From NCBI GenBank assembly GCA_963756155.1, contig CAVWMQ010000010.1, forward strand, positions 95,672 through 159,671: a stretch of DNA of 64,000 nt, in the 5' to 3' direction. A program made the position numbers and the translations under genes. This stretch comes from an uncultured delta proteobacterium. Lineage in GTDB: Bacteria > Desulfobacterota > Binatia > Binatales > Binataceae. The notes beneath the pieces were generated by a model that had not been told where the DNA came from, ran no database searches, and was given only the letters and a program-made list of their open reading frames with translations. Below, in pieces: positions 21,106 through 62,542 of the stretch. How positions within the stretch are numbered: position 1 is the first letter of the stretch; every line of letters begins with the position of its first letter.

Positions 21106-21188
21106 ACGGCGCCTTGGGCCGCCATGTAGTCCTTGGCTAACGCCGGTGATAAGACGTGAGGCGGTCGCTCTCTCAGAGGGATCACGCG

Positions 21189-24100
21189 ATGCGCTGCACG
21201 AAGTGCGGCATCGACAATGCCGCAGGTTCGAGATTCTGTAATCAGTGCGCGACGCCGCTCAGCCGGGTGTGTCCAAAGTGCGCTCATCTGAACGCGCCTG
21301 ATGCGAAGTTCTGCGCGGAGTGCGCCGCATCGCTGACTTCGGACGTATCGAAATCCACCGCAAGCACTTCTTCAACGTCAGCGGTGCGGATCGCGCCGGA
21401 GCAGACCGATTCTGAGGTCGCCGACGGCGAGCGCAAGACGGTCACCGCGCTGTTCGCGGACATCAAGGGCTCGACCGAGCTGGAGCAGGACCTCGATCCT
21501 GAAGAGGCGCGCGCGATCGTCGATCCTGCGCTCAAGCTGATGATCGACGCGGTGCACCGCTACGACGGCTACGTGGTGCAGTCCACCGGCGACGGGATTT
21601 TCGCGATGTTCGGCGCGCCGCTCGCGCACGAGGACCATCCGCAGCGCGCCATTCATTCCGCCATGCGGATGCAGGACGAGGTCCGCCGCTACGCCGACCG
21701 CTTGCGCGCCGAAGGGCGTGCGCCGCTGCAGATACCGGGTCGGCGCGAACACCGGCGAAGTAGTGGTGCGATCGATACGCACCGGTGAAGCCGAAGACCG
21801 AGTACACCGCGATTGGGCATCCGGTGAACCTGGCGTCGCGGATGCAGACGCTTGCCAATCCCGGCTCGACCGTGATCGCGGAGAGTACGCGCAAGCTGGT
21901 CGAGGGATATTTCACGCTCAAGTCGCTGGGCGCTTCGCGGGTCAAAGGCGTCAGTGAGCCGGTGAATGTTTACGAAGTCATCGGCCTCGGGCCCTTGCGC
22001 ACGCGCCTTCAGCGGGCGGTAGGGCGCGGGCTGGTGAAGTTTGTCGGCCGCAATCGCGAGATGGACACCCTGAAGCACGCGGCCGAGCAGGCCAGGGCGG
22101 GGCACGGGCAAATCGTCGCCGCGATGGCGGAGCCGGGAGTCGGCAAGACGCGCTTGTTTTACGAGTTCAAGGCGACTTCACAATCCGGCTGGATGGTGCT
22201 GGAGACGTTTTCGGTCTCGCACGGCAAGGCGTCTGCGTTTTTGCCGGTGATCGATCTGCTCCATGGCTACTTCAAGATCACCGGCGATGACGACACGCAC
22301 GCACGGCGCGTCAAGGTCAACGGCACGGTGCTCACGCTCGATCGCGCGCTGGAAGACACACTGCCGTATCTGTTCGGGCTGCTGGGAATAGTGGAAGGCG
22401 ACGACCCGCTTGGCCAAATGGATGCGCAGGTCCGAAAAGCGCGCACGCTGGACGCGATCAAGCGCATCCTGCTGCGCGAGTCGCTCAACCAGCCGCTGAT
22501 GGTCGAGTTCGAGGACCTGCACTGGATCGATGACGAGACGCAGGCGCTGCTCAACCTGCTCGCCGACTCGATCGGCACCGCGAAGATCCTGCTGCTGGTG
22601 AACTATCGGCCCGAATACTCGCATCAGTGGAACAGCAAGACCTACTACACGCAGTTGCGGCTCGACCCGCTCGGCAAAGAATCGGCCGAGGAAATGCTCT
22701 CGTCTCTGATCGGAGACGGCAAGGATCTGATCCCGCTGAAACGTCTCATCATCGAGAAGACCGAGGGCACGCCGCTGTTCATGGAAGAGGCCGTGGACAT
22801 GCTGCTGGAAGAGGGCGCGCTGGTGCGCAACGGCACGGTGAAGCTTGCCCGGTCGCTGAACCAGCTAAAGATTCCGCCAACGGTGCAGGACATCCTGGCC
22901 TCGCGTATCGATCGTCTGGCGCCGGACGCGAAGGATCTGCTGCAGACGCTGGCGGTGATCGGAATGGAATTCCCGTTCGGCCTGGTACAAAGGGTGGTCC
23001 CAAAATCGGAAGACGAGCTGGACCGCTTACTGCATGCTCTGCAGCTCGCCGAGTTCATCTACGAGCAGCCGGCAGCGGGCGAAAGCGAGTACATCTTCAA
23101 GCACGCGCATACGCGGGAAGTCGCGTACAACTCCCTGCTCAACGAGCGCAGAAAGCTCCTTCACGAACGGATTGGTTCTGCGATTGAAGCGTCATTCGCT
23201 CAATCAATCGATGATCATCTGAGCCAGCTTGCTCACCATTACAGTCGCAGCTCGAACGTCGAAAAAACGGTCGAGTACCTGGACCGCGCAGGGCGGCAGG
23301 CGATCATGCGCGGTGCCTTCAAGGAAGGCGAGCTCTATGTGAGGCAGGCGATCGCCGCGCTGCGCACGGCACCCGAAACCCCTGAGCGCACAAACCGGCA
23401 ATTCATTCTCCAGAACGCACTCTGTCAGGCGCTCTTCATGACGAGCGGCTTCACCACGGATGAGACTGTGCAGGCGACCCGGCGCTTGCTGGAGCTGGGC
23501 GAAAAAACTGGCGACCCGGAGCAACTCATCGCCGCGCTGAGGTCCGTTTGGCTCTCGACCTCTTCGCAGGGCGATTGGACCGCCGCCCAGCAGATCGCCG
23601 AACGACTAATAGAGACTGCCCAGCGCTGCGGGAATCGCTACGGTCTGGCCACGGCCCACTACTATCAGGGATGGTTCTTCATGATTCGTGGCGAGCTGAC
23701 TCGGGCAATGCAACATTTCGAGGCGACGATCGCGTCATACCGCGATGCTGACTTCTACGGGGACATCTGGAACTCTCGGGTCGGGGCGCTGGCGCGGATG
23801 GGTGCGGTGTTGTGGCATTTGGGGTTCGCCGATCAGGGTCGCGCGAAAATGCGTGAAGCGATTTCCTCGGCCGAGCGCTTGAAGGCTCACGGAAGTATGG
23901 CGGTCGTGCTCGTGCACGCCAGCCTTCTGTACATAGGTTTACGCGAGCACGCCAAGGTGGATGAATATGCCGCACGTCTGTTCACTCTCGCGAGCGAACA
24001 ACAACTCCCCCAATTTGTTACCGGCGCTGCGGTTGTTCGCGGATGGGCATTGGCCGAGCTGGGTCAGATTGAGGAAGGCCTCGCGCTGATTCGCCCAGGA

Positions 24101-24526
24101 CTCGATTCCAACCCGAGGCTCGTCCTCTGGGGGCCGACGTATTTGACAGCGTTGAGCGGGGTGCAGGCGCGCGCCGGTCAATTGGAAAAGGCACTGGCCA
24201 CGATCGAGCAAGCCTTCGCTACGGTTGGGGAAGAGCAACTCTATTTGCCGGGTGTGTTGTGGTGGCGCGGCGAGTTGCATCTGCGGCTTGCCGATGAAAC
24301 CAAGGCGGCCGGTGATTTCCGGGAAGCGATCGCCGTGGCCCGGCGCATTGGCTCGAAAGCATTCGTGCTGCGCGCGACGACGAGTCTCGCGCGGCTAATC
24401 GTCAGGCAAGGCAATCGCGACGAGGCGCGCGCAATGCTCGCGGACATCTACAATCAATTCACCGAAGGCTTCGACACCGCCGACCTGAAAGACGCCAAGT
24501 CCCTGCTCGCCGAGCTAAGGGAGTAG
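21189..24526 (+). pseudogene. zinc-ribbon / class III adenylate-guanylate cyclase / AAA (STAND-type) ATPase / TPR protein, interrupted by two +1 frameshifts as assembled
   Basis: The N-terminus has a double zinc ribbon (MRCTKCG..FCNQCA..CPKCAH..FCAECA). The cyclase core is split over three frames: ..APLQI (ORF 21156..21788), RVGANTGEVVVRSIRTGE (ORF 21718..21957), and KTEYTAIGHPVNLASRMQ onward (ORF 21785..24526). A Walker A motif (AEPGVGKTRL), a long helical region and TPR repeats follow. Confidence 0.85.
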
Positions 24527-25827: not shown

Positions 25828-28538
25828 ATGCCGGAGCCCCGTTTGGAACTCGCCAAAACATACGACCCCAAAGCCGCGGAACAACGATGGTTCCAGCTCT
25901 GGATCGATCTCGGCTACTTCAAAGCCGATCCCGCGCGCCAGGGCGCCCGCCGCGACGCGCACGGCAATGACTACTTCTCGATCGTCATTCCGCCGCCCAA
26001 CGTCACCGGACAGCTTCATCTCGGCCACGCGCTCAATCACACCCTGCAGGACATCATCGTGCGCACGCGCCGGATGCAGGGCTTCAACACCCTGTGGCTG
26101 CCCGGGAATGGATCACGCCGGCATCGCGACCCAGAACGTGGTCGAAAAGCAGATCGCCAAGGACGGCAAAAACCGCCATCAGCTCGGCCGCGATCTGTTC
26201 GTGCGCCGGGTATGGGAATGGAAAGAAACCTACGGCGGCAAAATCCTCGAGCAGGATCGCCGCCTCGGCGCGTCACTGGACTGGAGCCGCGAGCGCTTCA
26301 CCCTCGATGCCGGCCTCTCGCGCGCGGTGAGCAAGGTCTTCGTCGACCTGTACCGCAAGGGACTCATCTATCGCGACCGCCGGCTGATCAACTGGTGCCC
26401 GCGATGCGAGACGGCGCTCTCCGATCTGGAAGTCGAGCACAAGGACGCGCAGGGGCATCTCTATTACATCCGCTATCCCTTCAGCGACGGCAGCGGCACG
26501 ATAACCCTGGCGACCACGCGGCCCGAGACGATGCTGGGTGATACGGCGGTGGCCGTTCATCCTGACGACAAGCGCTACGCCGCGATCGTGGGCAAGAAGA
26601 TCCGGCTCCCGCTGATCGGCCGCGAAATTCCGATCATCGCGGATGCCGCCGTCGATCCCAACTTCGGCACCGGCGCGGTGAAGATCACGCCCGCGCACGA
26701 CTTCAACGACTTCGAAATCGGCCGGCGCCATCAGCTCGAACAGATCAGCGTGATGGACACGCGCGCGCACATGAACGAGAACGCCGGGCCGTACCGCGGG
26801 CTCGATCGCGAGGAATGCCGCCGCAGAATCATCGACGATTTGAAGAGCGCCGGGCTGCTCGAAAAAATCGAACCGCATCAGCTCGCGGTCGGCACCTGCT
26901 CGCGATGCGACACGGTGGTCGAGCCGATGATCTCCGAGCAATGGTTCATGCGCGTCAAGGAGATGGCGGAGCGCGCGATGCAGGCGGTGCGCGACGGCCG
27001 CACCAACTTCCATCCCAAGTTCTGGGAGAACACGTTTTTCAACTGGCTGGAAAATATCCACGACTGGTGCATCTCGCGCCAGCTATGGTGGGGGCATCGC
27101 ATTCCGGCCTATCGATGCCAGCGATGCGAGCATCTGATGGTCGCCGAAGAGCGCCCGCCGAAATGCGAGGAGTGCGGCGGCACCGACCTGGTTCAGGACG
27201 AAGACGTGCTCGACACCTGGTTCAGCTCCGGGCTGTGGCCGTTCTCGACGCTCGGATGGCCCGACGACACGCCGGAGCTGCGCCGCTACTACCCGACCAG
27301 CCTGCTGGTAACCGCGCACGACATAATTTTTTTCTGGGTTGCGCGGATGATGATGCTCGGGCTCGAGTTCATGAACGACGTGCCGTTCCGCGACGTTCTG
27401 ATCACTGCGCTGGTGCGCGACGAGTACGGCAAGAAGATGACCAAGTCGAAGGGCAACGTGGTCGACCCTATCGATTTGATGGAGCAGTACGGCACCGACG
27501 CGTGCCGCCTCACCTTCGCGCAGTTATCGGCCCAAGGCCGTGAAGTGATTCTCTCGCACGATCGTTTCGCGGCCTCGCGCGCGTTCGCAAATAAAATCTG
27601 GAACGCCGCGCGCTTCGTGATGATGAATCTCGAAGGCGCGCCCGAACCGCTGGCGCCGGTCGCGACCGCGAAGCTCGGGCATGGCCGAGCGATGGATCCT
27701 GAGCCGGCTCGACGCGGCGATCGAGGAAGTGAGCGGCGCTATCGATCGCTTCGAGTTCAACGTGGCGGCGATGGCGATTTACCAGTTTATCTGGCACGAA
27801 TTCTGTGACTGGTATATCGAACTGTCCAAGGAGCCGCTGAAGGCCGGCGGCGAGCGCCGCGACGCGGCGCGCTACGTGCTGGTCACCGTCTTCGACCGGA
27901 TGTTGCGCCTGCTGCATCCGTTCATGCCGTTCATCTCCGAGGAAATCTGGCAGGTGCTTCACCCGTACCTGAGCGAAGCGGACGGATCCGCGCTGAGTCC
28001 GCACTTGGTGATTGCGAAATGGCCCGAGCGCGCGCCCGCCAATCCGCTCAGCCAGGCGGAAGCGGCCGCGATGGGGCACTGTATCGAGGTGACAGAGGCG
28101 ATCAACTCGCTGCGCTCGCTGCTCGGATGGCATCCCGGCCAACGCGCCCGCGCCAAGATCAAATTCCTCGATTCGGTCGAAAGCACCGAGCTGGAAAGCT
28201 GGCGATTTTATTGCGACACGCTGGCCAAAAGCGAAATCGAACCGCTCACCAGTGAGTTCGATGATCATAAGTGGGTTGCGCTGGACCTGGGATGGGGCAA
28301 AGTGTGGGTGCAAGCCCCGGAAAATTTCGACGTGACCAAAACCCGCAACTCGTTCGCCAAAAAGCTCGCCGAGGTCCAGGCTCATCTCACGCGTCACGAG
28401 GCCCGAATCAAGGATGCGGGTTTTTTTGAGCGGGCCAGCCAGGAAGCGAAGGACGAAACGTTGAAGCGAATCGAGGATCTCAAGTCTGAGGAAAAGACCC
28501 TGAAGGGACAATTGCAGCAACTGGAAAGCGTCGGTTGA
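25828..28538 (+). pseudogene. valS: valine--tRNA ligase, interrupted by two +1 frameshifts as assembled (probably intact in vivo)
   Basis: Three consecutive ORFs (25825..26541, 25967..27808, 27681..28538) join into one ValRS: HIGH region PPPNVTGQLHLGHAL, ..TLWLPG|MDHAGIATQ.. (break near 26101-26108), KMSKS region KMTKSKGN, ..AKLG|(M)AERWILSRL.. (break near 27676-27681), and a C-terminal coiled coil. Confidence 0.9.
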
Positions 28539-30337: not shown

Positions 30338-32440
30338 ATGGCTGTCGAGGAAATCGGGCGGCTCAGGACCATCGCGATCGTCGGCCAGGGCGGCACCGGC
30401 AAGACCCAGCTCGCCGAGGCGATGCTGTTCACCGCCGGTGCGATCAACCGCCTCGGCCGTCCCGACGACGGCAGCGCGGTGATGGACTTCGAACCGGAGG
30501 AACTCCATCGCCACGTTTCGATCAGCTCCACGTTTCATCATCTTAACTGGAAAAAGACCGAAGTCATCCTGGCCAACACGCCCGGCTACGGCGCGTTCCT
30601 GCCCGATACCGTCGCGACTCTGCGCGCGGTCGACGGCGTGGTGCTGCTGATCAGTCCCGGCAATGACACCAAGGTCGAGTCGGAAAAAATCTGGGAGGCG
30701 ATTTCCGAGCTCGGCCTCCCGCGCATCGCTTTCGTCTCGCGACTGGATCGCGAGCGCGCGAGTTTCGACAACGCGCTCAGGGACCTCGAGAAGACGCTCG
30801 GTGCGAAGCCGGTCGTGATGACGCTGCCGATCGGCGAGGAGCTCGGCTTTCGCGGCGTGGTCGACGTGCTCGCGATGAAAGCGCTCGTGTACGGCGACAC
30901 CTCGGGCAGGCCCAAGGAAGAGGAACTCAGTGGCGAACTCAAGACGCGCGTGGAGGCGGCCCGCAATGCGCTGTTCGAGACGGTCGCCGAGTCCGACGAC
31001 GCGCTGCTCGAGAAATATCTCGACCAGGGATCGCTCGAGGAAGAGGAAGTGCGCACCGCGCTCCACGCCGGCGTCCGGGCGGGCACGCTGACTCCCGTGT
31101 TCTGCGGCTCGGGCACCAAGAATATCGGCGTCGGCCCGCTGCTCGATGCGATTAACGTGCTGATGCCAGCGCCCAACGAGCGCCCCGCCGTAAAGGGGCA
31201 GCACTCCTCGACCGGCGAGCCGGTCGAGCGCGCCGCCGATCCCGGCGCGCCATTCGCGGCACTGGTATTCAAATCAGTGATCGATCCGTTCGCCGGCAAG
31301 CTTTCGATCTTTCGCGTGGTCTCCGGCAAGGCGCTCAGCGATGCGACGGTTTACAACGCCGCCCGCGAGTCACGCGAGCACTTCGGTCAGTTGCTGCGCC
31401 TGGAAGGCAAGAAGCAGGCGCCCCTTGCCATCGCGCTCCCCGGTGAGATCGTCGCGGTCGCCAAGCTCAAGGACACCACCACCGGCGACACGCTATGCGA
31501 CGAGAAAGCTCCCCTGCTGTTGGCGCCGATCCCGCGGCCGACGCCGGTTATCTCGTTCGCTATTCGCCCCAAGACCAAGAGCGACGAGGAGAAGTCCTCG
31601 GCCGCGATGCACAAGCTGCTCGAGGAGGATATCGCGCTCGAGATGCATCGCGATCCCCAGACCCACGAAATCATCCTGTCGGGCACCGGCCAGATGCATA
31701 TCGAGGCGACCGTCGAGAAGCTCAAACGTAAATTTAATGTAGAGGTTGAACTTCAGTCGCCCAAGGTCCCCTACAAGGAAACCCTCAAAGGACGCGCGGA
31801 AGCGCAGGGAAAGTATAAGCGCCAGTCGGGCGGCCGCGGGCAGTACGGCGACTGCTGGCTCAAGGTCGAGCCGCAACCGCGCGGCAAGGGTTTCGAGTTC
31901 GTCGACGAAATCGTCGGCGGCGTGATTCCGCGCAACTTCATTCCGTCGGTGGAAAAGGGCGTGCGCAGCACACTCAACGAAGGCTTTCTCGCCGGATTTC
32001 CGGTGGTCGATATCAAGGTGACGGTCTTCGACGGCAGCTATCACGACGTCGACTCCTCGGATATGGCGTTTCAGATCGCCGCTTCGATGGGACTCAAGGC
32101 CGCGTTCGAAAAAGCCCGCCCGATCATCCTTGAGCCAATTCTGGAACTCGCCGTAGCCTGTCCCGACGAATGCATGGGCGAGGTGATCGGCGACCTCAAT
32201 GCGCGCCGCGGCAAAGTCCTGGGAATGGATCGCAAGGGCCAGAGCCAGGTCATCAAGGCACGGGTGCCGATGTCGGAAGTGCTCAAGTACGCGCCCGACC
32301 TGCGCTCCATCACCTCGGGACGCGGATCGTTCGAGCAGCATTTCTCGCACTACGAGGAGGCCCCTCCGCAGATCGCCGAAAAGATCATCAAGGAGACTCA
32401 TGCCGCGCGCGAGGCCGCCAAGGAACGCGCCCACGCCTAA
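30338..32440 (+). CDS. elongation factor G-like protein (divergent paralog with non-canonical G motifs)
   Basis: 700 aa with full five-domain EF-G colinearity. However, G1 reads GQGGTGKT, DTPGH reads NTPGY, and NKxD reads SRLD. Confidence 0.9.
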   Translation: MAVEEIGRLRTIAIVGQGGTGKTQLAEAMLFTAGAINRLGRPDDGSAVMDFEPEELHRHVSISSTFHHLNWKKTEVILANTPGYGAFLPDTVATLRAVDGVVLLISPGNDTKVESEKIWEAISELGLPRIAFVSRLDRERASFDNALRDLEKTLGAKPVVMTLPIGEELGFRGVVDVLAMKALVYGDTSGRPKEEELSGELKTRVEAARNALFETVAESDDALLEKYLDQGSLEEEEVRTALHAGVRAGTLTPVFCGSGTKNIGVGPLLDAINVLMPAPNERPAVKGQHSSTGEPVERAADPGAPFAALVFKSVIDPFAGKLSIFRVVSGKALSDATVYNAARESREHFGQLLRLEGKKQAPLAIALPGEIVAVAKLKDTTTGDTLCDEKAPLLLAPIPRPTPVISFAIRPKTKSDEEKSSAAMHKLLEEDIALEMHRDPQTHEIILSGTGQMHIEATVEKLKRKFNVEVELQSPKVPYKETLKGRAEAQGKYKRQSGGRGQYGDCWLKVEPQPRGKGFEFVDEIVGGVIPRNFIPSVEKGVRSTLNEGFLAGFPVVDIKVTVFDGSYHDVDSSDMAFQIAASMGLKAAFEKARPIILEPILELAVACPDECMGEVIGDLNARRGKVLGMDRKGQSQVIKARVPMSEVLKYAPDLRSITSGRGSFEQHFSHYEEAPPQIAEKIIKETHAAREAAKERAHA

Positions 32441-32522: not shown

Positions 32523-32744
32523 ATGCCGCCGCTCGGAAAAGGACTGATCGTCGTCGGGCTCATCCTGGTCGTGGCGGGAGTCGCGGTATGGGTGTTGCCG
32601 TCGATTCCTTATGCGGGCCGGCTAGGGCGGCTGCCCGGTGACATCTACATCAAGCGGGACAACTTCACGCTTTACTTTCCACTCACCACCGGAATCCTGA
32701 TTAGCGTCGTACTCACAATCCTGTTGTCGCTGATGAGGCGATGA
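32523..32744 (+). CDS. DUF2905 family small membrane protein
   Basis: 73 aa with two hydrophobic helices and the central GRLPGDIYIKRDNFTLYFP motif. Its stop codon overlaps the next gene's start (ATGA). Confidence 0.75.
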   Translation: MPPLGKGLIVVGLILVVAGVAVWVLPSIPYAGRLGRLPGDIYIKRDNFTLYFPLTTGILISVVLTILLSLMRR

Positions 32745-34978
32745 CGGTGGCCGATGAGACGAAGCTGAGCACGCATCGGCTCGCGGAGCGCAAGCGGCGC
32801 CGCCGCGAGCTGATCGCCGTCGGCATCGCGGCCGCGACGCTGGTCGCCTTCGTGCTGGCGCAGACCGAGCTTCCGCCGCTGACCCGGCATACGTCGCTGG
32901 TCTCCAACCTCGCGGTCATCACGCTCTTCAATTTGAGCTTCCTGCTCCTGGGCCTGTTGCTGTTCCTGGTCGGGCGCAATCTCGCCAAGGTCATCTTCGA
33001 GCGCCGCCGCGGACTCATCGGCTCCAAGTTCCAGGTCAGGCTGGTGGCCGGCTTTATCGCCGTGGCGCTGGTACCGAGCGCTTTCCTGCTCTATGTGTCC
33101 GGCGTTTTTCTGCACGCTGATATCGGTAGCTGGTTCAATCCCGAGTACGAGCAGGTGCTCGACGACTCGCTCGAGATCGCAAAGACTTATTACCTGAACT
33201 CCGCGAACAACGCGTCGCACTTCGCGCGCGTACTGGCTGAGGAGGTCGCCAAGCACGACCTGCTCTCGACCGCCAAGCGCCCCGCGCTCCGCGATTACAT
33301 CGAGAAGCGCCAGCAGGAGTACAACCTCGGCACCATCGAGGTGTTCTCCAAGGATCGCAAGCTGCTGCTGCTTGCGCTGAGCCCCAAGACTCCGACCGGG
33401 GTCGGCGTGTCGCCCGACTCAACGCTGATTTCCGAAACGCTGAAAGGGCAGGCGATGACGCGCACTGATCGCCTCTCGCGTTCCGACGTGGTGCGCGGCT
33501 CCGCGCCGATTTATTCCTCGACCGATTCCGACCAGGTGCTGGGCGCGGTGGTGGTCGACTACTTTCTGCCCACCAGCCTCGCCACTCGCGCGACCGACAT
33601 CTCGCGCACCTCGGAGGACTACTTCCAGCTGCGCATCCTGCGCCAGCCGATTCTCAACAGCTATCTGCTGGCCCTGGTGCTGATCGGCCTGGTGGTAGTG
33701 ACGCTCTCTAGCTGGTTCGGGATGTACCTAGCGCGCGGAATCACCGGGCCGATCAAACTACTCGCGCAGGGCACCGAGGCGATCGCCGCGGGAAATCTGA
33801 ACTACCAGATTCCCGAGGTCGGCGACGACGAACTCGGCCGGCTGGTCGATTCGTTCAACCAGATGACCACCGACCTGCGCGTCTCCGGCGCCGAGCTCGA
33901 GCGCCGCCGCCGCTACACCGAGACGCTGCTCCGCAACGTGTCGGCCGGCGTCGTCGGGCTGGACGCGCAAGGGCACGTGACGGCGATAAATCCCTGCGCG
34001 GAGCGGTTGCTGGGGATGGCCGCCGCCGACCTGGTCGGGCGCAACTATGCGTTTGCGTTTCCGCCCGCGCTGGCCCGTGTACTGGAGGATATCTTTGCCT
34101 CCCCGACGCGCCCGCGCGAGGTGCGCGCGACCATCAAGCTGGACTCCAACAGCAACGGCGACAGCGAGCTGATGATGACCGCGAGCCCGCTGGCCGAAGG
34201 CGCCGACGAACCCGGCGGAATGGTGCTGTTCTTTGAAGACGTTAGCCAGATCGCCAAGGTCGAGCGGATGGAAGCGTGGCGCGAGGTGGCGCGCCGCATC
34301 GCGCACGAAATAAAAAATCCGCTCACTCCGATCCAGCTCTCCGCCGAGCGCCTGCGCCGCCAGCTTGGCGGCCGCGACGGCGGACCGTCAGCGCTGGTCG
34401 ACGAATGCACCCGCACCATCATCGGCGAGGTCGAAGATCTCAAACGCCTGGTGAACGAATTCTCCGGCTTCGCACGAATGCCGCATCTCAATCCGCTCCC
34501 CGGCGATCTCAACGCGCTGGCCGCCGAGACGGTCGCGAATTTCCGCGAGGCAAATCCCAACGTCGAGTTCTCGGTCGCGCTAGACCCGGCGCTGCCGCTC
34601 ATCGCGATCGATCGCGAGGCGGTGAAGCGCGCCCTGGTCAACCTGCTCGACAACGCGGTCGCAGCGACCACCACGTACAACGGCAATCGCAATGGCGACC
34701 GGCCGCGAATCGAGCTTCGCACCACACTCAAACCGGATAAGGTGGTGCTCGAGATCGCGGACAACGGACCTGGGATCGAGCCGCGGCTTCGCACCCGCGT
34801 TTTCGAGCCGTACTTTTCCAGCAAGAAGGGCGGCACCGGACTCGGCCTCGCGATCGTCTCCGCGATCATCTCGGATCATCGCGGCTTCGTCCGTGTCGAC
34901 GACAACCAGCCGCACGGAAGTAGATTCATCGTCGAGTTTCCGCTAAAAGAGCAGCAACTCGCCAAGGCAACGGGCTGA
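32741..34978 (+). CDS. ntrY: NtrY-like sensor histidine kinase (TM-HAMP-PAS-HisKA-HATPase)
   Basis: 745 aa. It has an N-terminal multi-TM region, a HAMP domain (GDDELGRLVDSFNQMTTDL), a PAS region, the H-box HEIKNPLTPIQLSAERL, the N box DNAVAA, and the G box GTGLGLAIV. Confidence 0.9.
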   Translation: MTVADETKLSTHRLAERKRRRRELIAVGIAAATLVAFVLAQTELPPLTRHTSLVSNLAVITLFNLSFLLLGLLLFLVGRNLAKVIFERRRGLIGSKFQVRLVAGFIAVALVPSAFLLYVSGVFLHADIGSWFNPEYEQVLDDSLEIAKTYYLNSANNASHFARVLAEEVAKHDLLSTAKRPALRDYIEKRQQEYNLGTIEVFSKDRKLLLLALSPKTPTGVGVSPDSTLISETLKGQAMTRTDRLSRSDVVRGSAPIYSSTDSDQVLGAVVVDYFLPTSLATRATDISRTSEDYFQLRILRQPILNSYLLALVLIGLVVVTLSSWFGMYLARGITGPIKLLAQGTEAIAAGNLNYQIPEVGDDELGRLVDSFNQMTTDLRVSGAELERRRRYTETLLRNVSAGVVGLDAQGHVTAINPCAERLLGMAAADLVGRNYAFAFPPALARVLEDIFASPTRPREVRATIKLDSNSNGDSELMMTASPLAEGADEPGGMVLFFEDVSQIAKVERMEAWREVARRIAHEIKNPLTPIQLSAERLRRQLGGRDGGPSALVDECTRTIIGEVEDLKRLVNEFSGFARMPHLNPLPGDLNALAAETVANFREANPNVEFSVALDPALPLIAIDREAVKRALVNLLDNAVAATTTYNGNRNGDRPRIELRTTLKPDKVVLEIADNGPGIEPRLRTRVFEPYFSSKKGGTGLGLAIVSAIISDHRGFVRVDDNQPHGSRFIVEFPLKEQQLAKATG

Positions 34979-35044
34979 AGGGCCGCGCGCAACTGCGCGC
35001 ATCGCGCATCTCAGCAATAAAGTTCCTATAGAGAGAGCATTGAA

Positions 35045-36322
35045 GTGAACGAAACCGTGTTGGTGGTGGATGATGAGGAGCGGATTCGATCCTCAATTCG
35101 CGGCATCCTGAGCGACGAGGGCTTTCGCGTGGTCGAGACCGGCGACGCGCCCGCGGTGATCGATCTGATCGCGCGCGAGCATCCCGCGATCGTCCTGCTC
35201 GACGTGTGGATGCCCGACCTCGACGGCATCGAGCTGCTGCGGCGGATCAAATCTGAACAGCCACAGGTGCCGGTGATAATGATTTCCGGCCACGCGAATA
35301 TCCAGAGCGCGGTAGCGGCGACCAAGCTCGGCGCCGCGGATTTCATTCAGAAGCCGTTTTCGGTCAGCGGATTGCTCGCATCGATCGCGCGCGCCCTCGA
35401 CGACGGGCAGCCTGCCGCGCAGGTGGCGAGCGCGCCGGCGCAGGAGAGCGCCGGCGTCGCGAATCGCAAACAGACCTCGCGGCTCGGTGCGCGACCGCAG
35501 CGCACCATCGCGCGATCGATCGTGATGGGCGGGCAGGGGCTCCACACCGGGCTCAAGACCGGGGTGATTCTGCATCCCGCGCCCACCGGCTCCGGAATCG
35601 TGTTCTCCTCGCTCGCCGATGAAACCGCGGTCGCCGCCTGTCTGGAGAACGTCAGCGACACCGGTTACAACACCACGCTCACCAGCGGCGGACGCTCGGT
35701 GCGGACTGTCGAGCATCTGATGTCCGCGCTGCACGCATTCGGGATCACCAACCTGCTGATCAAGACCGATGACGAGGTCCCGGCGCTCGACGGCTCCGCG
35801 CTGGAATTCTGCCGCCAGCTCACCGAAGCCGGCGTGACCGATCAGGATCGGACCGTCGAACCGATCCGAATCACCAAACCGATCGTGATCGGCGAGGAGG
35901 GCGAAGGATGCGAGTTCATCCGCATCGAGCCCGCCGACGTGCTGACTATCGACTACACGCTCGACTATCCGGAGCCGGTCGGCATCCAGCGCGTGCATTT
36001 CGAGCTGTCCTCACCCGAGTCATACACGCGCGAGATTGCGCCGGCACGCACCTTCACTTTCGTCAAGGAGTTTCGCAAGCTCTGCGAGATGGGACTGGGA
36101 GCGGGCGGGCGCCTGGACAATCTGATCCTGGTCGACGAGGTCAAGGTGGTGAACACCACGCTGCGCTTTCCCAACGAATTTGCGCGCCACAAGGTGCTCG
36201 ATCTGATCGGCGACCTCTACCTGTTTGGACGGCCGATCGTCGGGCATGTCACCGCGTCGAAGACCGGACACTCGGACAACCTGGCGATGGTGAAGGCGAT
36301 CCGCGGCTCGCTCGCAGCATAG
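35045..36322 (+). CDS. lpxC: response-regulator receiver domain fused to UDP-3-O-acyl-N-acetylglucosamine deacetylase (REC-LpxC)
   Basis: GTG start. The REC motifs VVDDEE, LLDVWMPDLDG, MISGH and IQKPF are present. After a linker of about 40 aa comes an LpxC domain with TVEHL, ARTFTF, RHKVLDLIGDL and KTGHS. Confidence 0.9.
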   Translation: MNETVLVVDDEERIRSSIRGILSDEGFRVVETGDAPAVIDLIAREHPAIVLLDVWMPDLDGIELLRRIKSEQPQVPVIMISGHANIQSAVAATKLGAADFIQKPFSVSGLLASIARALDDGQPAAQVASAPAQESAGVANRKQTSRLGARPQRTIARSIVMGGQGLHTGLKTGVILHPAPTGSGIVFSSLADETAVAACLENVSDTGYNTTLTSGGRSVRTVEHLMSALHAFGITNLLIKTDDEVPALDGSALEFCRQLTEAGVTDQDRTVEPIRITKPIVIGEEGEGCEFIRIEPADVLTIDYTLDYPEPVGIQRVHFELSSPESYTREIAPARTFTFVKEFRKLCEMGLGAGGRLDNLILVDEVKVVNTTLRFPNEFARHKVLDLIGDLYLFGRPIVGHVTASKTGHSDNLAMVKAIRGSLAA

Positions 36323-36395: not shown

Positions 36396-37139
36396 ATGGA
36401 CCTCAACGGCAAAGTAGCCCTGGTCACCGGCTCCGGGCGCCGGGTCGGCAAGACGATCGCTCTCGCATTGGCGGAGCGCGGAGCCACCCTCGCGATCCAC
36501 TATCGCAGCTCGCAAGCCGAAGCCGACGGGGTCGTCGCCGAAATCGCCGGCCAGCACGGAAAACCCGGCAACGCAACCGTGTTTCACGCCGACCTCGAAA
36601 AGGTCGCCGACATCGAAGTGATGATCACTGCGGTGCTCGCCGCCTTCGGCCGCATCGACGTGCTGGTCAATTCCGCGTCGATTTTTTATCGCAAGCCGAT
36701 CGAGGAAGTGACCGAGCGCGACTGGGACGTGAACCTCAACACCAACCTGAAGGCGCCGTTCTTTCTGGCCAAGTTCGCGGGCGCCGCGATGCGCCGGCAG
36801 GGCGCTGGCAAAATCGTGAACATCGGGGACTGGGCCGGGATACGGCCGTATAATAACTATCTTCCCTACGTGGTCTCCAAGACCGGGATTCTCGGGCTCA
36901 CCAAAGCTCTGGCGAAAGCGCTCGCGCCGGAGGTGCAGGTCAATTGCGTGGCGTTGGGCCCGGTGATGGCGCCCGAGGAATATGGCGCTGACGAGATCGC
37001 GCGGATGGTCGCCGGCACGCTGACCAAAAAGATGGGCACGCCGGAGGACGTCGCGCGCGCGGTGCTGTTTTTCTGCGAGGGCACCGATTTCGCGACCGGC
37101 GCGACGCTGGTCCTCGACGGCGGCCGCCTGATCGCGTAG
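36396..37139 (+). CDS. SDR family oxidoreductase (pteridine-reductase/FolM-like)
   Basis: It has the TGSGRRVG cofactor motif and the catalytic YxxxK (YVVSK). At 247 aa it is a classical SDR. Confidence 0.88.
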   Translation: MDLNGKVALVTGSGRRVGKTIALALAERGATLAIHYRSSQAEADGVVAEIAGQHGKPGNATVFHADLEKVADIEVMITAVLAAFGRIDVLVNSASIFYRKPIEEVTERDWDVNLNTNLKAPFFLAKFAGAAMRRQGAGKIVNIGDWAGIRPYNNYLPYVVSKTGILGLTKALAKALAPEVQVNCVALGPVMAPEEYGADEIARMVAGTLTKKMGTPEDVARAVLFFCEGTDFATGATLVLDGGRLIA

Positions 37140-37143
37140 CGCC

Positions 37144-37851
37144 TTGAAAGATTTCCGCGTCACTCCGGTTCCATCGCGCGTCGCGGTGCTCGCCAGCGGC
37201 GGGCTCGACAGCAGCGTACTGCTGGGCGAGGTGGCGCGGCGCGGCCGGCGCGTGTTTCCCGTTTACGTGCGCGCGGGTCTCAAATGGGAGGACGCCGAGC
37301 TAGCCGCGCTGCGCCGTTTTCTGCGCGCGCTCGGGCGCAAAAATATCGAGCCCGTCACTGTCCTGCGTTTGCCTACAGATGACATCGCCGCCCATCACTG
37401 GAGCGTCACCGGGCGCAACGTCCCCGGCTATCGCGCCGCGACTGCGTCGAACTACATCGCGGGCCGCAACTTGAGCCTGCTCGCCAAGGCTGCCGTGTTT
37501 TGCGCGCTCAGGCGGATCGGGGAGATCGCGATGGCGCCGCTGGAGAGTAATCCTTTTCCAGATGCGCGCCCGGAATTCTTCCGCTCCTTCGAGCGCACCG
37601 CGGAACTCGGCCTGAGACTGAGCTTGCGCGTCACGACGCCCTTTCTCGGCCTCACCAAGGCGCAAGTGATCCAGCGCGGCAGCTTGCTTCCGCTCGAGCT
37701 GACGCTCTCATGCGCGCGGCCGCGCGGCGCGCTCCAATGCGGCTCGTGCACCAAGTGCGCCGAGCGTATCGAGGCGTTCGCAGCGTCCGGCGTCGACGAC
37801 CCCACCCGCTACGCGCATCGCCCGCGGCCGGCGCGGGCGCATATCGCTTGA
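37144..37851 (+). CDS. QueC-like PP-loop ATPase (divergent 7-cyano-7-deazaguanine synthase family)
   Basis: TTG start 4 nt after the SDR stop codon. It has the PP-loop SGGLDSS and a C-terminal Cys cluster (SCARPRGALQCGSCTKCAERIEAF) like the QueC zinc site. The usual DYGQRH region is not recognisable. Confidence 0.8.
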   Translation: MKDFRVTPVPSRVAVLASGGLDSSVLLGEVARRGRRVFPVYVRAGLKWEDAELAALRRFLRALGRKNIEPVTVLRLPTDDIAAHHWSVTGRNVPGYRAATASNYIAGRNLSLLAKAAVFCALRRIGEIAMAPLESNPFPDARPEFFRSFERTAELGLRLSLRVTTPFLGLTKAQVIQRGSLLPLELTLSCARPRGALQCGSCTKCAERIEAFAASGVDDPTRYAHRPRPARAHIA

Positions 37852-37874: not shown

Positions 37875-38957
37875 TTACGACTCGCTGCCGGGCGGCTTGC
37901 GGTATTCGATTTTGCTCTTTTTCGCGAGTTGCTTGAGCATCGCCTTGACCACCGCTTCCTCGTTGAACGAAAGCAGTGCCATCGCGATCTTCGACTGGAC
38001 TTCACTCAACGGTGCTATCGTCGTTCCGCGCCGTGCCGTCACCAGGATGAAGCTGGGGCCCATGTTGGAGGTAAATACCGGCGTGAGATGCCCGACCGGC
38101 GTCGTGAAGACCTGTTTGTCCACGCTGGGAGGAAGCTGGCCGGGGCGAAAGTAGCCGAGGTCTCCGCCCTTCGCAGCGGACTCGGTGTCGTCAGAGTCCT
38201 TGCGGGCCAGTGCGGCGAAGTCCTTGGTCTTCAGCGCCTCGGCGTAGAGTGCCTGGATCTTTTTATCCGCCGCTGCCGTCTGTGCGTCCGTTGCGTCGGG
38301 CGGGAGCTTGACGGCGATGTGCGAGATCCGGACCTCGCCGGGATCTTTCACGAAGCGGTCTTTGTGCTCGTCGTAGTACTGCTGGATTTGCTGCGGGGTC
38401 GGCGTCACGTGATGCGCGCGGAACTCCTCATCGAGCATCTTCTCGACCTCGAGCATGCCCCGCGCCACGTCCATCAAGTCCGCGTCCGGCGCGCTGCCCG
38501 CCTCCTGGACCGTCTCACCGCTCGCGCCCGCGACCTGGAACTCGCGCGCGCGTTGCGCCACCTCGGCGTCGGGAATCGTTATCTTGCGGCGCTGCGCTTC
38601 CTGCAGCAGCAGCTCGCGGTTGATCAGATTTTCGGTCGCGTCTTTCCACACGGCGTTGGTTTCTTCGGTCGAGGTTGCGTTGATGAGCTGCGCCTCGGTT
38701 TTCGAATATTCGTCGATCTGGGTGACGGTGATCGGAGTTCCATTGACCATCACCACGACCGGATCCTTCGCATTCGGCTTGACCATCGGAACGATTCCGA
38801 GAAAGCGCTGCTGCCAGCTCAGATTTGATTCCCCGAGCGTCTGCGGGCCGGGAAGACTGTCGGCATGCGCCGCGGGCGCGAGCATCAGCGCGAGTACGGC
38901 CAGCGCAAGTGCCGCGGCCTGCGGGGCGGGCGCGACAGTCCTAAGTCGTGTCCTCAT
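37875..38957 (-). CDS. peptidylprolyl isomerase (SurA/PpiD-like, parvulin domain)
   Basis: Start taken at MRTRLRTVAP..LMLAPAAHA, which carries a signal peptide. The parvulin motif GGDLGYFRPGQLPPSVDKQVF...GPSFILV is present. Confidence 0.85.
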   Translation of the reverse strand: MRTRLRTVAPAPQAAALALAVLALMLAPAAHADSLPGPQTLGESNLSWQQRFLGIVPMVKPNAKDPVVVMVNGTPITVTQIDEYSKTEAQLINATSTEETNAVWKDATENLINRELLLQEAQRRKITIPDAEVAQRAREFQVAGASGETVQEAGSAPDADLMDVARGMLEVEKMLDEEFRAHHVTPTPQQIQQYYDEHKDRFVKDPGEVRISHIAVKLPPDATDAQTAAADKKIQALYAEALKTKDFAALARKDSDDTESAAKGGDLGYFRPGQLPPSVDKQVFTTPVGHLTPVFTSNMGPSFILVTARRGTTIAPLSEVQSKIAMALLSFNEEAVVKAMLKQLAKKSKIEYRKPPGSES

Positions 38958-39055
38958 CGCCTGATCCTTGTGCTCATCAGCGAACCCATATTGAATCAGT
39001 TCAATCCGGTTGGGGCGCACGCAACGCCGCGCTACGCCCCGGCCGCCAACTCCCG

Positions 39056-39241
39056 ATGGCGCAGCTTCGTTCCGCATGCCTGGTGGTCGCGATAATCGCG
39101 AGCATCTGTGCGTTGATCTCGGTCGTGGTCCTGTTCTTCGCGATCGAGCCTCCGTTCCTGGTGTCGATTTTCATTGCCTCGGGCGCTATCGCGATTGCAT
39201 GCTTCCTGATCGCCGGCGCCACCGCATACTTCATCGAATAA
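39056..39241 (+). CDS. possible small two-TM membrane protein
   Basis: A 61-aa ORF starting at an internal ATG with two hydrophobic helices (LVVAIIASICALISVVVLFFAI; VSIFIASGAIAIACFLIAGA). No homology evidence is available. Confidence 0.3.
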   Translation: MAQLRSACLVVAIIASICALISVVVLFFAIEPPFLVSIFIASGAIAIACFLIAGATAYFIE

Positions 39242-41474: not shown

Positions 41475-44400
41475 ATGATCTGTAATTCATGCGGATGTCC
41501 GAACGCAGCCGATCGCAAATTCTGCGGTGGATGCGGAAAGACGCTCGTGCCCGCAAGTGGCGCGTCGCGAGCGCAAGCGGCGCCGCAGTCGTCCGGCGCG
41601 GCATCGCAAACCTCGATCATATGCAACGCGTGCGGATGTCCCAACGACGCGGGCCGCAACTTCTGCGGCGGATGCGGCGCGGCGCTCGCAGTCGCATGCC
41701 CGTCGTGCGGCGCGCCGCATCGCGTCGAAGAGCGATACTGCGGCGCGTGCGGCAAATCGTTGGACGGAGCGAAGTCGGGATCGGCAGGGGCGTCGTCGCA
41801 ACCCTCGACGCTGTCCGCGGGAGCGTCGTCCGCGGCGCAGTCGCCGATGCCCACTTCGATCGCCGGCGGCCGCTATCGCGTGCTCCAGCTGCTCGGCGAA
41901 GGCCGCAGCAAGGTCGTCTATCTCGCGCATGACGCCGCGATCGATCGCGACGTCGCCATCGCACTGTTCAAGATCGATCAACTCGACGAAGCCGGTCGCG
42001 AGCGCACCAGCCGCGAGGCGCGCGCGATGGGCCGCCTCGGCGAACATCCGCACATCGTCAACATTTACGACATCGGAGAGGAGGCCGGCCGGCCGTACAT
42101 CGTCAGCCAGTACATGCCCGGCGGCTCGGTCGACGATTTGATTAGGCGCCGCGGCCGGCGCGGGCTCGCGCTCGACGACGCGATCCGGATCGCGACGGAG
42201 GTGGCCGACGCGCTCGACTATGCGCACTCGCGCGGCGTGATTCATCGCGACCTCAAGCCCGCCAATGTTTTCATCGCGCAGAACGGGCAGAGCATGCTCG
42301 GCGACTTCGGCCTCGCGATCGCGCCCGACCAGTCGCGACTCACCGTGCAGGGCATGATGGTCGGCACCGTCGCGTACATGCCGCCCGAGCAAACGCTCGG
42401 CAAGCCGCTGGAGCCGCGCAGCGATCTCTACTCGCTCGGCGCGATGCTGTTCGAGATGCTGACGGGACGGCCGCCGTTCATCGGCGACGATCTGATGGCG
42501 ATTCTCACGCAGCACGTGAGCGCTGCGCCGCCCGTGCCGTCGTCGATCGCGCCCGAGGTGCCGCGCGCGCTCGACGACTTGGTGCTGCGGATGCTCGCGA
42601 AGACGCCGGAGGCGCGGCCCGCGAGCGCGGCGACGGTGCGCGATCAGTTGCGCTCGATGACGTCGGCACCGCCGGCGGCGATCGACGTGATCGCATCGAC
42701 GGTCATGATCGAGCGGCCGAACCTGCGCGCGCAGTCGGCGCCCGACGGCACCGTCAGCATTTTATTTTCGGACGTCGAGAATTCCACGATCATGACCGAG
42801 CGCCTGGGCGACCTTCGGGCGGCCGAAGTGATGGGCGTGCACAATCGGATCATACGCGACCAGGTTGCCAAACAGCAGGGTTTCGAAGTCAAGGCGATGG
42901 GTGACGGCTTCATGATCGCCTTTGCCAGCGCAAGACGTGCCTTGAATTGCGCTATCGGCATCCAGCGTGCCTTGGCTGACTATTGCCGCGATAACCCCGG
43001 CGTACCGATTCGCGTGCGGATCGGGATCAACATGGGCGAGGCGATCCAGGAGGAGGGCGATTTCTTCGGCAAGGCCGTGATCCTCGCCGCGCGCATCGGG
43101 GCGGCCGCCAAGGCCGGCGAAATCCTGGTCTCACCGACGGTCAAAGAGGTGACCCAGAGCGCCGGCGATCTCCGCTTCGACGACGGCCGCGAGATGCAGC
43201 TCAAGGGCCTGGCCGGCAACTATCGCGTCTATCGCGTGAAGTGGGCCGCCGGCGAGCAGAACTGTCCGCGATGCGCCCGGCCGCTGCCCCCCGGCTCCGA
43301 CGAATGTCCGTTCTGCACCGCGAGCACTGCGCGAGGCCCCGTGTCGACCGAACCTAGTATCGCGGCGGCCGACACTCGCGCCGTCCGGCGCCGCGACCGG
43401 GTGCGGAGTCCGACGCGCCGCTGGATCGTGCTTGCGATCATCGCCGTCGTCGTGATCAGAGGCGCGTTCGCCGGCCACGGGTTTTTTCACGATCAGCAGC
43501 AGACCCCCAAACAGGCGCCGGAGAACTTGCAATCCGGATCGCCGGCCCCAGCCCCGGCTGCGATCGCGCCGAATGCTGCGACTGCCGCGCCGAATCCGCA
43601 AGTCGCCGCGATCGCTCCGGCTCCCGCGGCGTCCGAGCTGCAGGAGACGACCAGCAACGGCTTCGCTCCGAAGAACGCGGTCGTCGAGCTCAACCATTTG
43701 CGCCGCGCCGCCGGACTGCTCGCCGTCCTCGGCGACCCAGCGGCGCACGAGGCCAACGTGATCCGCGCGCGCAAGGTGCTCGATAAGTACGAGGAGGACC
43801 ACGGCTCGGCGTCGCAGGGCGAGACCGGCTCCGCCGCGATGCCCGATCTGAACGATCGCATTGTCGGACGTCCTACGTACGGGCCTGACGGGCTTGGCGC
43901 CGCGCCTACCGCCTTCGTGTTCAAGGGCCTGGGCCGGCGCTTCACCGGCGCCGAGATCCTCAATCGCATGGCGGCGATGCCGTTCGCGGCGCTCAGGTTT
44001 CTCGATCCGCAACTCGCCGAAATCGGATTTGGCAGCGCGTGCTCGAAGGGCGAATGCTGCGCGCTGGTCACGATGCAGCGCGGCCTGGCGAAGCCGCTCA
44101 GGATCAAGATGTTCGTGGCGACCGAGCGCGATCGCACCTGGAATGCCGCGCTCGGTCCGATACCGCCGACGCGCGGCCGGCTGAAGATGCCGGTTGAATT
44201 TCCGCCGCCGGGCGCGGCGACCACGACGCTCGCGTATCGCGGCGGCGACTGGCCCAATCCGATCGCGGTGTGCCCCGGCTACGCGCTGCCGACCGGTCCG
44301 GCGGTGATCCTCGAACTCGGCGCGGGATCAAACGGCGCGGACGATCCTCTGATCTCGAGTCATTTGATCACGCGCGCCGGCGCCGAGGTGCCCAACTGCC

Positions 44401-44600
44401 TGGTACGGCCGTCCGCGTTTCGCAAGGCCAACGAGCTGTGGGGGCAGGCCGCGCGCGGATTTCTGAGCGGCGCCGGAGCGGTGATGCTGATCCCGCGCGA
44501 GCCGCTGGTGCCCGGCAGCTCCTACACCGTCTCGATCACCGCCGACTCGACGCCGTACACGTGGTCGTTCACTGCCGCGTCAGCGCCGGCGGCGCCGTAA
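41475..44600 (+). CDS. multidomain signalling protein: zinc ribbons - Ser/Thr protein kinase - class III nucleotidyl cyclase - zinc ribbon - TM - periplasmic domain
   Basis: 1041 aa. It has CxxC..CxxC ribbons, kinase motifs HRDLKPANV, DFG and TVAYMPPE, cyclase motifs ILFSDVENST, KAMGDGFMIAF and RIGINMGE, a CPRC..CPFC ribbon, the TM helix WIVLAIIAVVVI, and a C-terminal region of about 370 aa. Confidence 0.9.
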   Translation: MICNSCGCPNAADRKFCGGCGKTLVPASGASRAQAAPQSSGAASQTSIICNACGCPNDAGRNFCGGCGAALAVACPSCGAPHRVEERYCGACGKSLDGAKSGSAGASSQPSTLSAGASSAAQSPMPTSIAGGRYRVLQLLGEGRSKVVYLAHDAAIDRDVAIALFKIDQLDEAGRERTSREARAMGRLGEHPHIVNIYDIGEEAGRPYIVSQYMPGGSVDDLIRRRGRRGLALDDAIRIATEVADALDYAHSRGVIHRDLKPANVFIAQNGQSMLGDFGLAIAPDQSRLTVQGMMVGTVAYMPPEQTLGKPLEPRSDLYSLGAMLFEMLTGRPPFIGDDLMAILTQHVSAAPPVPSSIAPEVPRALDDLVLRMLAKTPEARPASAATVRDQLRSMTSAPPAAIDVIASTVMIERPNLRAQSAPDGTVSILFSDVENSTIMTERLGDLRAAEVMGVHNRIIRDQVAKQQGFEVKAMGDGFMIAFASARRALNCAIGIQRALADYCRDNPGVPIRVRIGINMGEAIQEEGDFFGKAVILAARIGAAAKAGEILVSPTVKEVTQSAGDLRFDDGREMQLKGLAGNYRVYRVKWAAGEQNCPRCARPLPPGSDECPFCTASTARGPVSTEPSIAAADTRAVRRRDRVRSPTRRWIVLAIIAVVVIRGAFAGHGFFHDQQQTPKQAPENLQSGSPAPAPAAIAPNAATAAPNPQVAAIAPAPAASELQETTSNGFAPKNAVVELNHLRRAAGLLAVLGDPAAHEANVIRARKVLDKYEEDHGSASQGETGSAAMPDLNDRIVGRPTYGPDGLGAAPTAFVFKGLGRRFTGAEILNRMAAMPFAALRFLDPQLAEIGFGSACSKGECCALVTMQRGLAKPLRIKMFVATERDRTWNAALGPIPPTRGRLKMPVEFPPPGAATTTLAYRGGDWPNPIAVCPGYALPTGPAVILELGAGSNGADDPLISSHLITRAGAEVPNCLVRPSAFRKANELWGQAARGFLSGAGAVMLIPREPLVPGSSYTVSITADSTPYTWSFTAASAPAAP

Positions 44601-59325: not shown

Positions 59326-62542
<3,217 letters not shown>

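Follow-up and report, generated by a model that had tools for sequence, protein, structure and literature searches.

An NtrX-like receiver domain fused to LpxC behind an NtrY-type sensor kinase in Binatia

In an uncultured soil bacterium of the family Binataceae (phylum Binatota), a single gene encodes a complete response-regulator receiver domain (REC), a disordered linker and a full-length UDP-3-O-acyl-GlcNAc deacetylase (LpxC), in this order. The gene lies on the forward strand at 35045..36322 of a 64,000-nucleotide stretch of contig CAVWMQ010000010.1 (positions 95,672 to 159,671; assembly GCA_963756155.1), which we call the window and to which all coordinates refer. It begins with a GTG codon and specifies a protein of 425 residues, whose two domains are read in one frame with no stop codon between them. 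Directly upstream is a gene for an NtrY-type sensor histidine kinase. Judging from sequence comparisons, the protein very likely combines an NtrX-derived receiver with a predicted competent LpxC and is paired with this kinase, and we consider it probable (about 0.6) that it acts as a response regulator with LpxC as its output domain.

The REC::LpxC protein, its conservation and its kinase

The receiver occupies residues 1-118 (35045..35398) and is recognised by the Pfam family Response_reg (PF00072) over residues 5-114, with 109 bits (E 1.9e-31; cutoff 30.2). Inspection at the codon level located the acidic pair D9/D10, the phospho-acceptor D53 (35201-35203), the switch residues S81 and F100, and K103. 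Together, the Pfam score and the presence of the acidic pair, the phospho-acceptor Asp, the Ser and the Lys place the domain in the receiver family, bearing out a sequence-only reading of the window that had described a complete CheY-like receiver. Among the response-regulator models of NCBIfam, NtrX matches the fusion protein best (125.8 bits), with the match confined to the REC part, and the best matches of the receiver in the PDB are entries 4d6x and 5m7n, which we take to be Brucella NtrX. The score stays below the cutoff of 600 bits for the NtrX model (NF051870), and the AAA+ and helix-turn-helix (HTH) domains of such regulators are absent.

The LpxC part comprises residues 151-425 (35495..36322, including the stop codon). 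It matches PF03331 over residues 152-419 and profile positions 1-266 of 268 (281.8 bits, E 7.9e-84; cutoff 27) and exceeds the cutoff of the lpxC equivalog model TIGR00325 of NCBIfam (236.5 versus 187.25 bits). In a residue-by-residue alignment, its TVEHL, ARTFTF, RHKVLDLIGDL and KTGHS motifs fall in register with the solved LpxC of Pseudomonas aeruginosa, the motifs common to both being TVEHL, ARTF(T/G)F, HK(V/I)LDxIGDL and K(T/S)GH. The catalytic residues, again verified at the codon level, are E223, H224, T336, H382, K383, D386, D390 and H409. We take E223/H224 to correspond to E78/H79 of Escherichia coli LpxC, T336 to T191, H382/K383/D386/D390 to H238/K239/D242/D246, and H409 to H265; in the same numbering, the zinc ligands are His79, His238 and Asp242, and the catalytic residues Glu78, His265, Thr191 and Asp246. 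Counterparts of all of them are present, so that the domain is predicted from its sequence to be catalytically competent, with the zinc site and the acid/base residues intact, as had been proposed. It ends six residues past the Pfam domain and therefore lacks a C-terminal extension of the type found in E. coli LpxC.

The fusion is widespread among related bacteria. All 120 of the best 120 database clusters carry both Pfam domains, in proteins of 420-446 residues that are 72-81% identical to the fusion protein, except for the window's own cluster (100%), and a relative is encoded in 386 species-level genomes. The named relatives belong to Candidatus Binataceae or Binatus (phylum Candidatus Binatota, class Binatia). 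A profile search also retrieved another large group, 46-55% identical and carrying the label Candidatus Binatia, so the short form appears to be class-wide in Binatia. We then asked, across independent assemblies obtained from short and long reads, whether REC and LpxC share one frame that is free of stop codons between them, which was the case in 138 of 145 related loci, closed Binatia chromosomes included. The seven exceptions comprise three truncations at contig edges, two stand-alone LpxCs from unrelated phyla (L212, Fibrobacteraceae; L213, Elusimicrobium) and two broken loci, one with the domains in different frames (L091) and one with a stop codon and a fragmented kinase gene (L214). A frameshift or mis-assembly joining a separate response-regulator gene to lpxC had to be considered for this contig, in which valS, carB and a cyclase/AAA_16/TPR gene are each split into overlapping open reading frames (ORFs) in different frames; with three long genes affected, indel errors are plausible. 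Such an artefact is nevertheless refuted by the continuous frame in independent assemblies and by the uniform two-domain composition of the best clusters, and we regard it as exceedingly improbable. The continuity that had been read from the window thus also holds in its relatives. In one Binatia metagenome-assembled genome (MAG), SMAG_U10078, two contigs (L166 and L175) each carry a REC::LpxC gene, which could reflect a real duplication, strain heterogeneity or contamination.

Conservation is unevenly distributed along the protein. Across 80 Binataceae loci, mean identity amounts to 87% in the receiver, 76% in LpxC and 17% in the linker. D9, D10, D53, S81, F100 and K103 are invariant in 76/76 Binataceae sequences, and the LpxC catalytic residues are invariant in the 80 loci wherever the sequence is present. 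Similarly, in 17 fusions at 32-53% identity, D10, D53, S81, K103, E223, H224, H382, K383, D386, D390 and H409 are invariant, and the complete zinc and catalytic set of LpxC, including T336, is invariant or nearly so. A receiver that is more conserved than the enzyme to which it is attached, and whose D53, S81 and K103 persist down to 32% identity, is hard to explain as a relic.

The linker (35399..35494, forward strand; residues 119-150) is rich in Ala, Gln and Pro. It measures about 32 residues, shorter than the roughly 40 estimated initially, and is hypervariable in sequence at a roughly constant length. A model of the fusion protein that was built with AlphaFold2 (AF2) on an alignment of 76 sequences reached a mean predicted local distance difference test (pLDDT) score of 86.6, with both domains confidently predicted, residues 150-425 mostly above 85 and residues 121-146 below 50. 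A 49%-identical ortholog with an unrelated linker gave values below 50 at residues 127-151. When compared with solved structures in Foldseek, the modelled LpxC part showed target-normalised template-modelling scores of 0.94-0.95 against Aquifex aeolicus LpxC (root-mean-square deviation 1.7-1.9 Å), confirming the LpxC fold, and of 0.85-0.90 against P. aeruginosa LpxC. The predicted template-modelling score of the whole protein (pTM) was 0.83, both for the fusion protein and for the 49%-identical ortholog. Our own expectation for domains of 275 and 118 residues without a fixed relation is roughly 0.65, so the models hint at a defined packing of the receiver against LpxC. We also considered an internal start that would yield free LpxC and rejected it, since we saw no conserved Met or start codon at the domain boundary in the alignments of Binataceae or of the divergent fusions.

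The kinase gene (32741..34978, forward strand) encodes 745 residues and ends 66 nucleotides before the fusion gene, in agreement with the sequence-only reading, which had noted an NtrY-like kinase at this position. Five domains were identified: NtrY_N (30.2 bits against a Pfam cutoff of 23.2), HAMP (33728-33880; 57.2 bits), PAS (33920-34243; 35.1 bits), HisKA (34277-34480; 42.5 bits), with the phospho-acceptor histidine H522 at 34304-34306, and HATPase_c (34610-34948; 78.7 bits). The latter four likewise exceed their cutoffs, which identifies the protein as an NtrY-type kinase. Transmembrane-like segments span residues 21-39, 51-69, 92-110 and 299-317, leaving a loop of about 190 residues between the third and the fourth, and the H box (HEIKNPL), N box (NLLDNA), G1 box (DNGPG) and G2 box (GTGLGL) are intact. 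An ortholog of the kinase lies directly upstream of the fusion gene in 77/80 Binataceae loci, the three misses being contig edges, and in nearly all other Binatia loci.

Preceding the kinase gene, with a stop codon that overlaps its start by four nucleotides (ATGA), is the gene for a small DUF2905 membrane protein (32523..32744, forward strand; PF11146, 82.1 bits) of 73 residues with two hydrophobic segments. It is a candidate accessory partner of the kinase, whose gene it precedes in 70/80 Binataceae loci; a jackhmmer search detected it in 73 Binatia loci. A role as a universal NtrY partner was rejected because DUF2905 is missing from all 11 long-form loci of the Thermodesulfobacteriota considered below. 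The conserved module is DUF2905-NtrY-REC::LpxC. In a Binatia lineage at 49% identity (L161-L163), this triplet is intact in wholly different flanks, with ruvCAB upstream and DUF2203 and queG downstream.

The spacer between the kinase and fusion genes (34979..35044, forward strand; 66 nucleotides) contains a GC hairpin directly past the kinase stop codon, GCGCGCAACTGCGCGC at 34985-35000, and a purine-rich stretch ahead of the GTG start. Perfect hairpins of at least 6 base pairs occur at this position in 27 of 74 related loci, with differing stem sequences, and the hairpin may be an mRNA element between the two genes. Promoter and terminator scans returned nothing above chance; the latter found six terminator-like sites where 4.3 were expected, with none in the intergenic gaps, including this spacer.

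Long forms and the origin of the fusion

An exhaustive search of 1.84 billion representatives yielded many short fusions at 34-53% identity together with proteins of 650-736 residues that carry a C-terminal LpxC. Pfam resolved distant fusions into REC-Sigma54_activat-AAA_lid_14-HTH_8-LpxC (P0124, among others), REC-AAA+-lid-LpxC (P0123 and P0130) and REC-HTH_8-LpxC (P0138 and P0142). In an architecture census of 165 sequences, made up of the top 150 representatives and 15 cluster members, we counted 48 REC-LpxC proteins (including fragments), 10 REC-AAA-HTH-LpxC, 7 REC-AAA-LpxC and 7 REC-HTH-LpxC proteins (one representative and six members of its cluster), in addition to several N-terminally truncated forms. 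The N-terminal 450 residues of P0124, whose cluster is named NtrX by JGI, match the NtrX model best and from end to end (339.5 bits, versus 310 for AtoC and 293 for NtrC). Moreover, the GAFTGA motif, whose lack is a hallmark of NtrX, occurs in none of 16 long forms. The long forms stem from Thermodesulfobacteriota MAGs (L081-L091) and Nitrospinota, and REC-HTH-LpxC proteins from Candidatus Entotheonellia; in 7 of 11 long-form loci, the gene directly upstream encodes a full NtrY ortholog that is 38-41% identical along more than 700 residues. The fusion gene of the window had been suggested to occupy the place of an NtrX gene, and both the best match of its receiver and the existence of relatives with an NtrX-like::LpxC composition behind an NtrY ortholog agree with this suggestion. 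One of the loci (L082; JAIWHJ010000348.1) is a 3.1-kb contig binned as a Promethearchaeota archaeon that encodes a bacterial-type NtrX::LpxC long form, 45% identical to P0124; it is most likely a mis-binned bacterial contig.

In a neighbour-joining tree of LpxC domains, all fusions form one clade, apart from 67 stand-alone LpxCs, with the short forms scattered among the long ones. The simplest reading of these sequence data is that a single ntrX::lpxC fusion took place in an ntrY-ntrX-lpxC operon, after which the AAA+ domain, the HTH domain or both were lost repeatedly and independently, with the receiver always retained. An ancestral gene for a whole NtrX-type regulator (REC-AAA+-HTH) would thus have fused to a downstream lpxC. 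In the Binatia, the AAA+ and HTH domains would later have disappeared, and a disordered linker of about 30 residues, sitting where the long forms have these domains, now connects the receiver with LpxC. The window protein would, by these comparisons, represent the reduced end of the series, derived from an NtrX-like ancestor without being a member of the NtrX family. What is new here is the series itself, from NtrX::LpxC via REC-AAA+-LpxC and REC-HTH-LpxC to REC::LpxC, as the origin of the fusion.

The likeness to the NtrY/NtrX systems of Brucella, Rhodobacter sphaeroides, Caulobacter and Sinorhizobium includes the kinase architecture (NtrY_N-HAMP-PAS-HisKA-HATPase), the order of kinase and regulator, the closeness of the receiver to that of NtrX and the NtrX-like REC-AAA+-HTH part of the relatives, without GAFTGA. 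It also includes a functional tie to lpxC and the levels of lipopolysaccharide (LPS) (PMC7240162, PMC12444477). In R. sphaeroides, deletion of ntrYX raises lpxC mRNA 8.8-fold and increases LPS, and no NtrX site is present at lpxC (PMC7240162); a 2025 review of lipid A regulation gives an about two-fold accumulation of LPS in the ntrYX mutant and describes NtrYX as a repressor of lpxC in Rhodobacter and Caulobacter (PMC12444477). The difference lies in the mode of action: NtrX works through DNA, influencing the transcription of lpxC (indirectly in R. sphaeroides), whereas the fusion protein lacks AAA+ and HTH domains and has LpxC attached covalently.

We found no published description of the REC-LpxC architecture in the open-access literature and bioRxiv, and nothing relevant on Binatota and lipopolysaccharide in the same sources; the 2025 review (PMC12444477) uses none of the words fusion, fused and receiver. 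The earlier statement that no characterised example is known therefore stands as far as publications are concerned. The architecture itself is common, especially in Binatia, and occurs in hundreds of species; public databases already contain it, simply named LpxC.

Possible control of LpxC by the attached receiver

The mechanism best supported by the sequence evidence is direct phospho-control of the activity or stability of LpxC, which we judge somewhat more probable than its absence. The upstream membrane kinase, of the NtrY type and in Binatia accompanied by DUF2905, would be the cognate partner and would phosphorylate Asp53, and this modification would change the amount of active LpxC, in terms of either activity or abundance. 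Most likely, the receiver would change the way it packs on the deacetylase domain, as in CheB; alternatively, the receiver might dimerise or the stability of the protein might change. CheB is a methylesterase in which an N-terminal receiver gates the fused C-terminal hydrolase. By analogy, the shared order of an N-terminal receiver, a flexible linker and a C-terminal hydrolytic enzyme makes receiver packing plausible for REC::LpxC as well, although the enzyme fold and the pathway are unrelated and packing in the fusion protein is hinted at by the modelled pTM. The sequence comparisons establish the identity of the domains, the integrity of their catalytic and phospho-signalling residues, the conservation of the fusion and of its pairing with the kinase, and the NtrX ancestry; phosphotransfer, any effect on LpxC activity, the direction of such an effect and the signal are inferred. 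If the logic of the alphaproteobacteria, in which NtrYX lowers lpxC, applied here, phosphorylation would inhibit LpxC, which is speculation by analogy. Still more tentative, at a little under even odds, is the proposal that NtrY monitors the condition of the cell envelope and, through phosphorylation of the attached receiver, turns LpxC on or off.

Other systems share parts of this arrangement. In E. coli, LpxC is likewise coupled to a membrane sensor of envelope state, through FtsH, LapB (YciM) and PbgA (YejM), yet control in model organisms relies on regulated proteolysis or partner binding, with no description of LpxC phosphorylation by a two-component system (PMC12444477). The Desulfovibrio vulgaris regulator DVU2934, which is associated with the kinase DVU2931 and the HD-GYP regulator DVU2933, has lpxC as its only mapped target (PMC3333781). 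It thus exemplifies a two-component regulator from a related lineage that is dedicated to lpxC, but it works on the lpxC promoter, as a DNA-binding protein in its own right. A natural fusion of LpxC to a second domain also exists in the bifunctional LpxC-FabZ protein (NCBIfam NF009667), where, in contrast, the added domain is a C-terminal fatty-acid dehydratase and serves metabolic coupling, not signalling; with 208 bits, the window protein stays below the cutoff of 465 for this model.

Two other explanations merit consideration. The domains may have been joined merely for co-expression or localisation, without allostery, so that the receiver docks the enzyme on the membrane kinase or serves as a phosphate sink for an NtrY whose real output is another regulator, and phosphorylation leaves LpxC catalysis unchanged. 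The long, disordered and hypervariable linker would suit this explanation, as it argues against rigid mechanical coupling, and fusions of operon neighbours can be selected for stoichiometry alone. However, the receiver is more conserved than the enzyme, with D53, S81, F100 and K103 invariant within the Binatia; independent lineages have repeatedly discarded the AAA+ and HTH domains but never the receiver; and the pTM obtained twice for the models suggests a defined packing. Nor was an NtrX-type DNA-binding regulator found in the window, which is otherwise occupied by housekeeping genes and contains no other lpx gene and no second lpxC. On balance, we consider a fusion without allostery unlikely. 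A slightly smaller chance falls to the possibility that the genome has its housekeeping LpxC elsewhere. The fused copy would then serve as an isozyme for certain conditions or as a module for ligand binding, a trigger enzyme signalling how much UDP-3-O-acyl-GlcNAc is present. As the long forms retain a DNA-binding HTH, their LpxC could be a metabolite sensor for a transcription factor, and the separation of the fusion clade from ordinary LpxCs would also fit an old paralog. Against such a role, the HTH is gone in Binatia, leaving LpxC as the only possible output, all catalytic residues rather than just the binding ones are invariant, and the protein scores above the lpxC equivalog cutoff. Moreover, lpxC is typically a single-copy gene, and the only LpxC-only sequences near the fusion clade are fragments or kin of in-frame fusions: P0163 and P0185 come from contigs shorter than 1 kb, and the relatives of P0171 in 47 Binatia-type genomes are all in-frame fusions. 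No stand-alone Binatia LpxC was confirmed among these nearest LpxC-only representatives, a scope beyond which a distant paralog would lie.

Several points weigh against a response regulator with LpxC as its output. None of the fusions scored reaches the NtrX equivalog cutoff of 600 bits, the maximum among the long forms being the 339.5 bits of P0124. No NtrY-type kinase is encoded within the fetched flanks of six long or mid-length forms (L081, L086, L090 and L204-L206), which may be orphan regulators or may be paired with a distant kinase. The LpxC tree is unbootstrapped and is built from sequences chosen by their similarity to a fusion query, and the pTM of the models bears only indirectly on inter-domain packing. 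Finally, with a separate housekeeping lpxC elsewhere in the genome, the committed step would fall to that gene and the fusion would be an accessory isozyme. We nonetheless favour the response regulator with LpxC as its output domain; a relic receiver is unlikely, because the receiver is under strong constraint, has been kept while AAA+ and HTH domains were lost repeatedly and remains paired with a conserved kinase.

Surroundings of the module and implications

The sequence-only reading had proposed a five-gene operon extending from DUF2905 through the kinase and REC::LpxC genes to two genes downstream. The first three indeed form the conserved unit, but the remaining two are variable neighbours, whose place is taken by other genes in less closely related Binatia, and the five-gene operon was rejected. 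One of them (36396..37139, forward strand) encodes a pteridine-reductase-like oxidoreductase of the short-chain dehydrogenase/reductase (SDR) type (adh_short_C2, 150 bits; 225 bits for the pteridine reductase model NF006598, under its cutoff of 288), which is present in 66/80 Binataceae loci and absent from L161-L163. The other (37144..37851, forward strand) encodes a QueC-like PP-loop ATPase (PF06508, 95.1 bits; 70.4 bits for TIGR00364, under its cutoff of 150.3) and is present in 41/80 loci. A queuosine-related gene thus lies just 3' of the module in two unrelated contexts, the divergent QueC-like gene in Binataceae and queG in L161 (9164-10336), and this proximity may be coincidence.

Converging on the module is a gene for a SurA-like periplasmic chaperone with SurA_N and PPIC rotamase domains (37875-39077, reverse strand), an envelope-related but not universal neighbour found in 56/80 Binataceae loci. 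Upstream of the module, a 700-residue EF-G-like GTPase with all five EF-G domains (30338-32440, forward strand) is encoded in 71/80 loci and birA in 54/80. Of the split genes, valS (25967-28538, forward strand) consists of the overlapping ORFs 25967..27808 (catalytic core) and 27681..28538 (anticodon-binding domain and C-terminal arm), suggesting an indel error or frameshift near 27.7 kb. The carB gene for the large chain of carbamoyl-phosphate synthase (59326-62542, reverse strand) likewise falls into two ORFs that overlap in different frames (60887..62542 and 59326..61152). In the gene for a zinc-ribbon/adenylate-cyclase/AAA_16/TPR protein (21156-24526, forward strand), the break runs through the cyclase domain, parts of which lie in 21156..21788 and 21785..24526; as the third split long gene, it points to assembly indels in the contig. 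A second large signalling protein (41475-44600, forward strand; 1041 residues) resembles it in having a double zinc ribbon at the N-terminus and an adenylate/guanylate cyclase domain, and also carries a Ser/Thr kinase domain. Two tandem paralogs of 446 and 435 residues (53868-55208 and 55245-56552, forward strand), with N-terminal hydrophobic segments resembling signal peptides and a shared HE(L/F)THALQDQN motif (HExxH), have no Pfam match at E <= 1e-4 and may represent an undescribed metalloprotease family.

LpxC, which commits the cell to lipid A, is the control point of lipopolysaccharide synthesis and a major antibiotic target. Its regulation, as known so far, is proteolytic, transcriptional or based on partner binding. 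Direct phospho-control by a two-component system, if confirmed, would add a fourth mode and would place LpxC among the enzymatic outputs of response regulators. The fusion also gives a testable handle on what NtrY senses. Although, to our knowledge, the Binatia have no cultured representative, the hypothesis can be tested in vitro, as the fusion proteins have only two domains, are of small size and look soluble, and an assay for the enzyme is established. Beyond the Binatia, the fusion series constitutes a Rosetta-stone link between NtrX and LpxC, and lends independent support to the published but mechanistically unexplained connection between NtrYX and LPS in alphaproteobacteria. If our reading is correct, the progression from NtrX::LpxC via REC-HTH::LpxC to REC::LpxC implies that the control of LPS is an ancient core function of NtrYX, which would explain the link between NtrYX and lpxC that has so far been only indirect in alphaproteobacteria.

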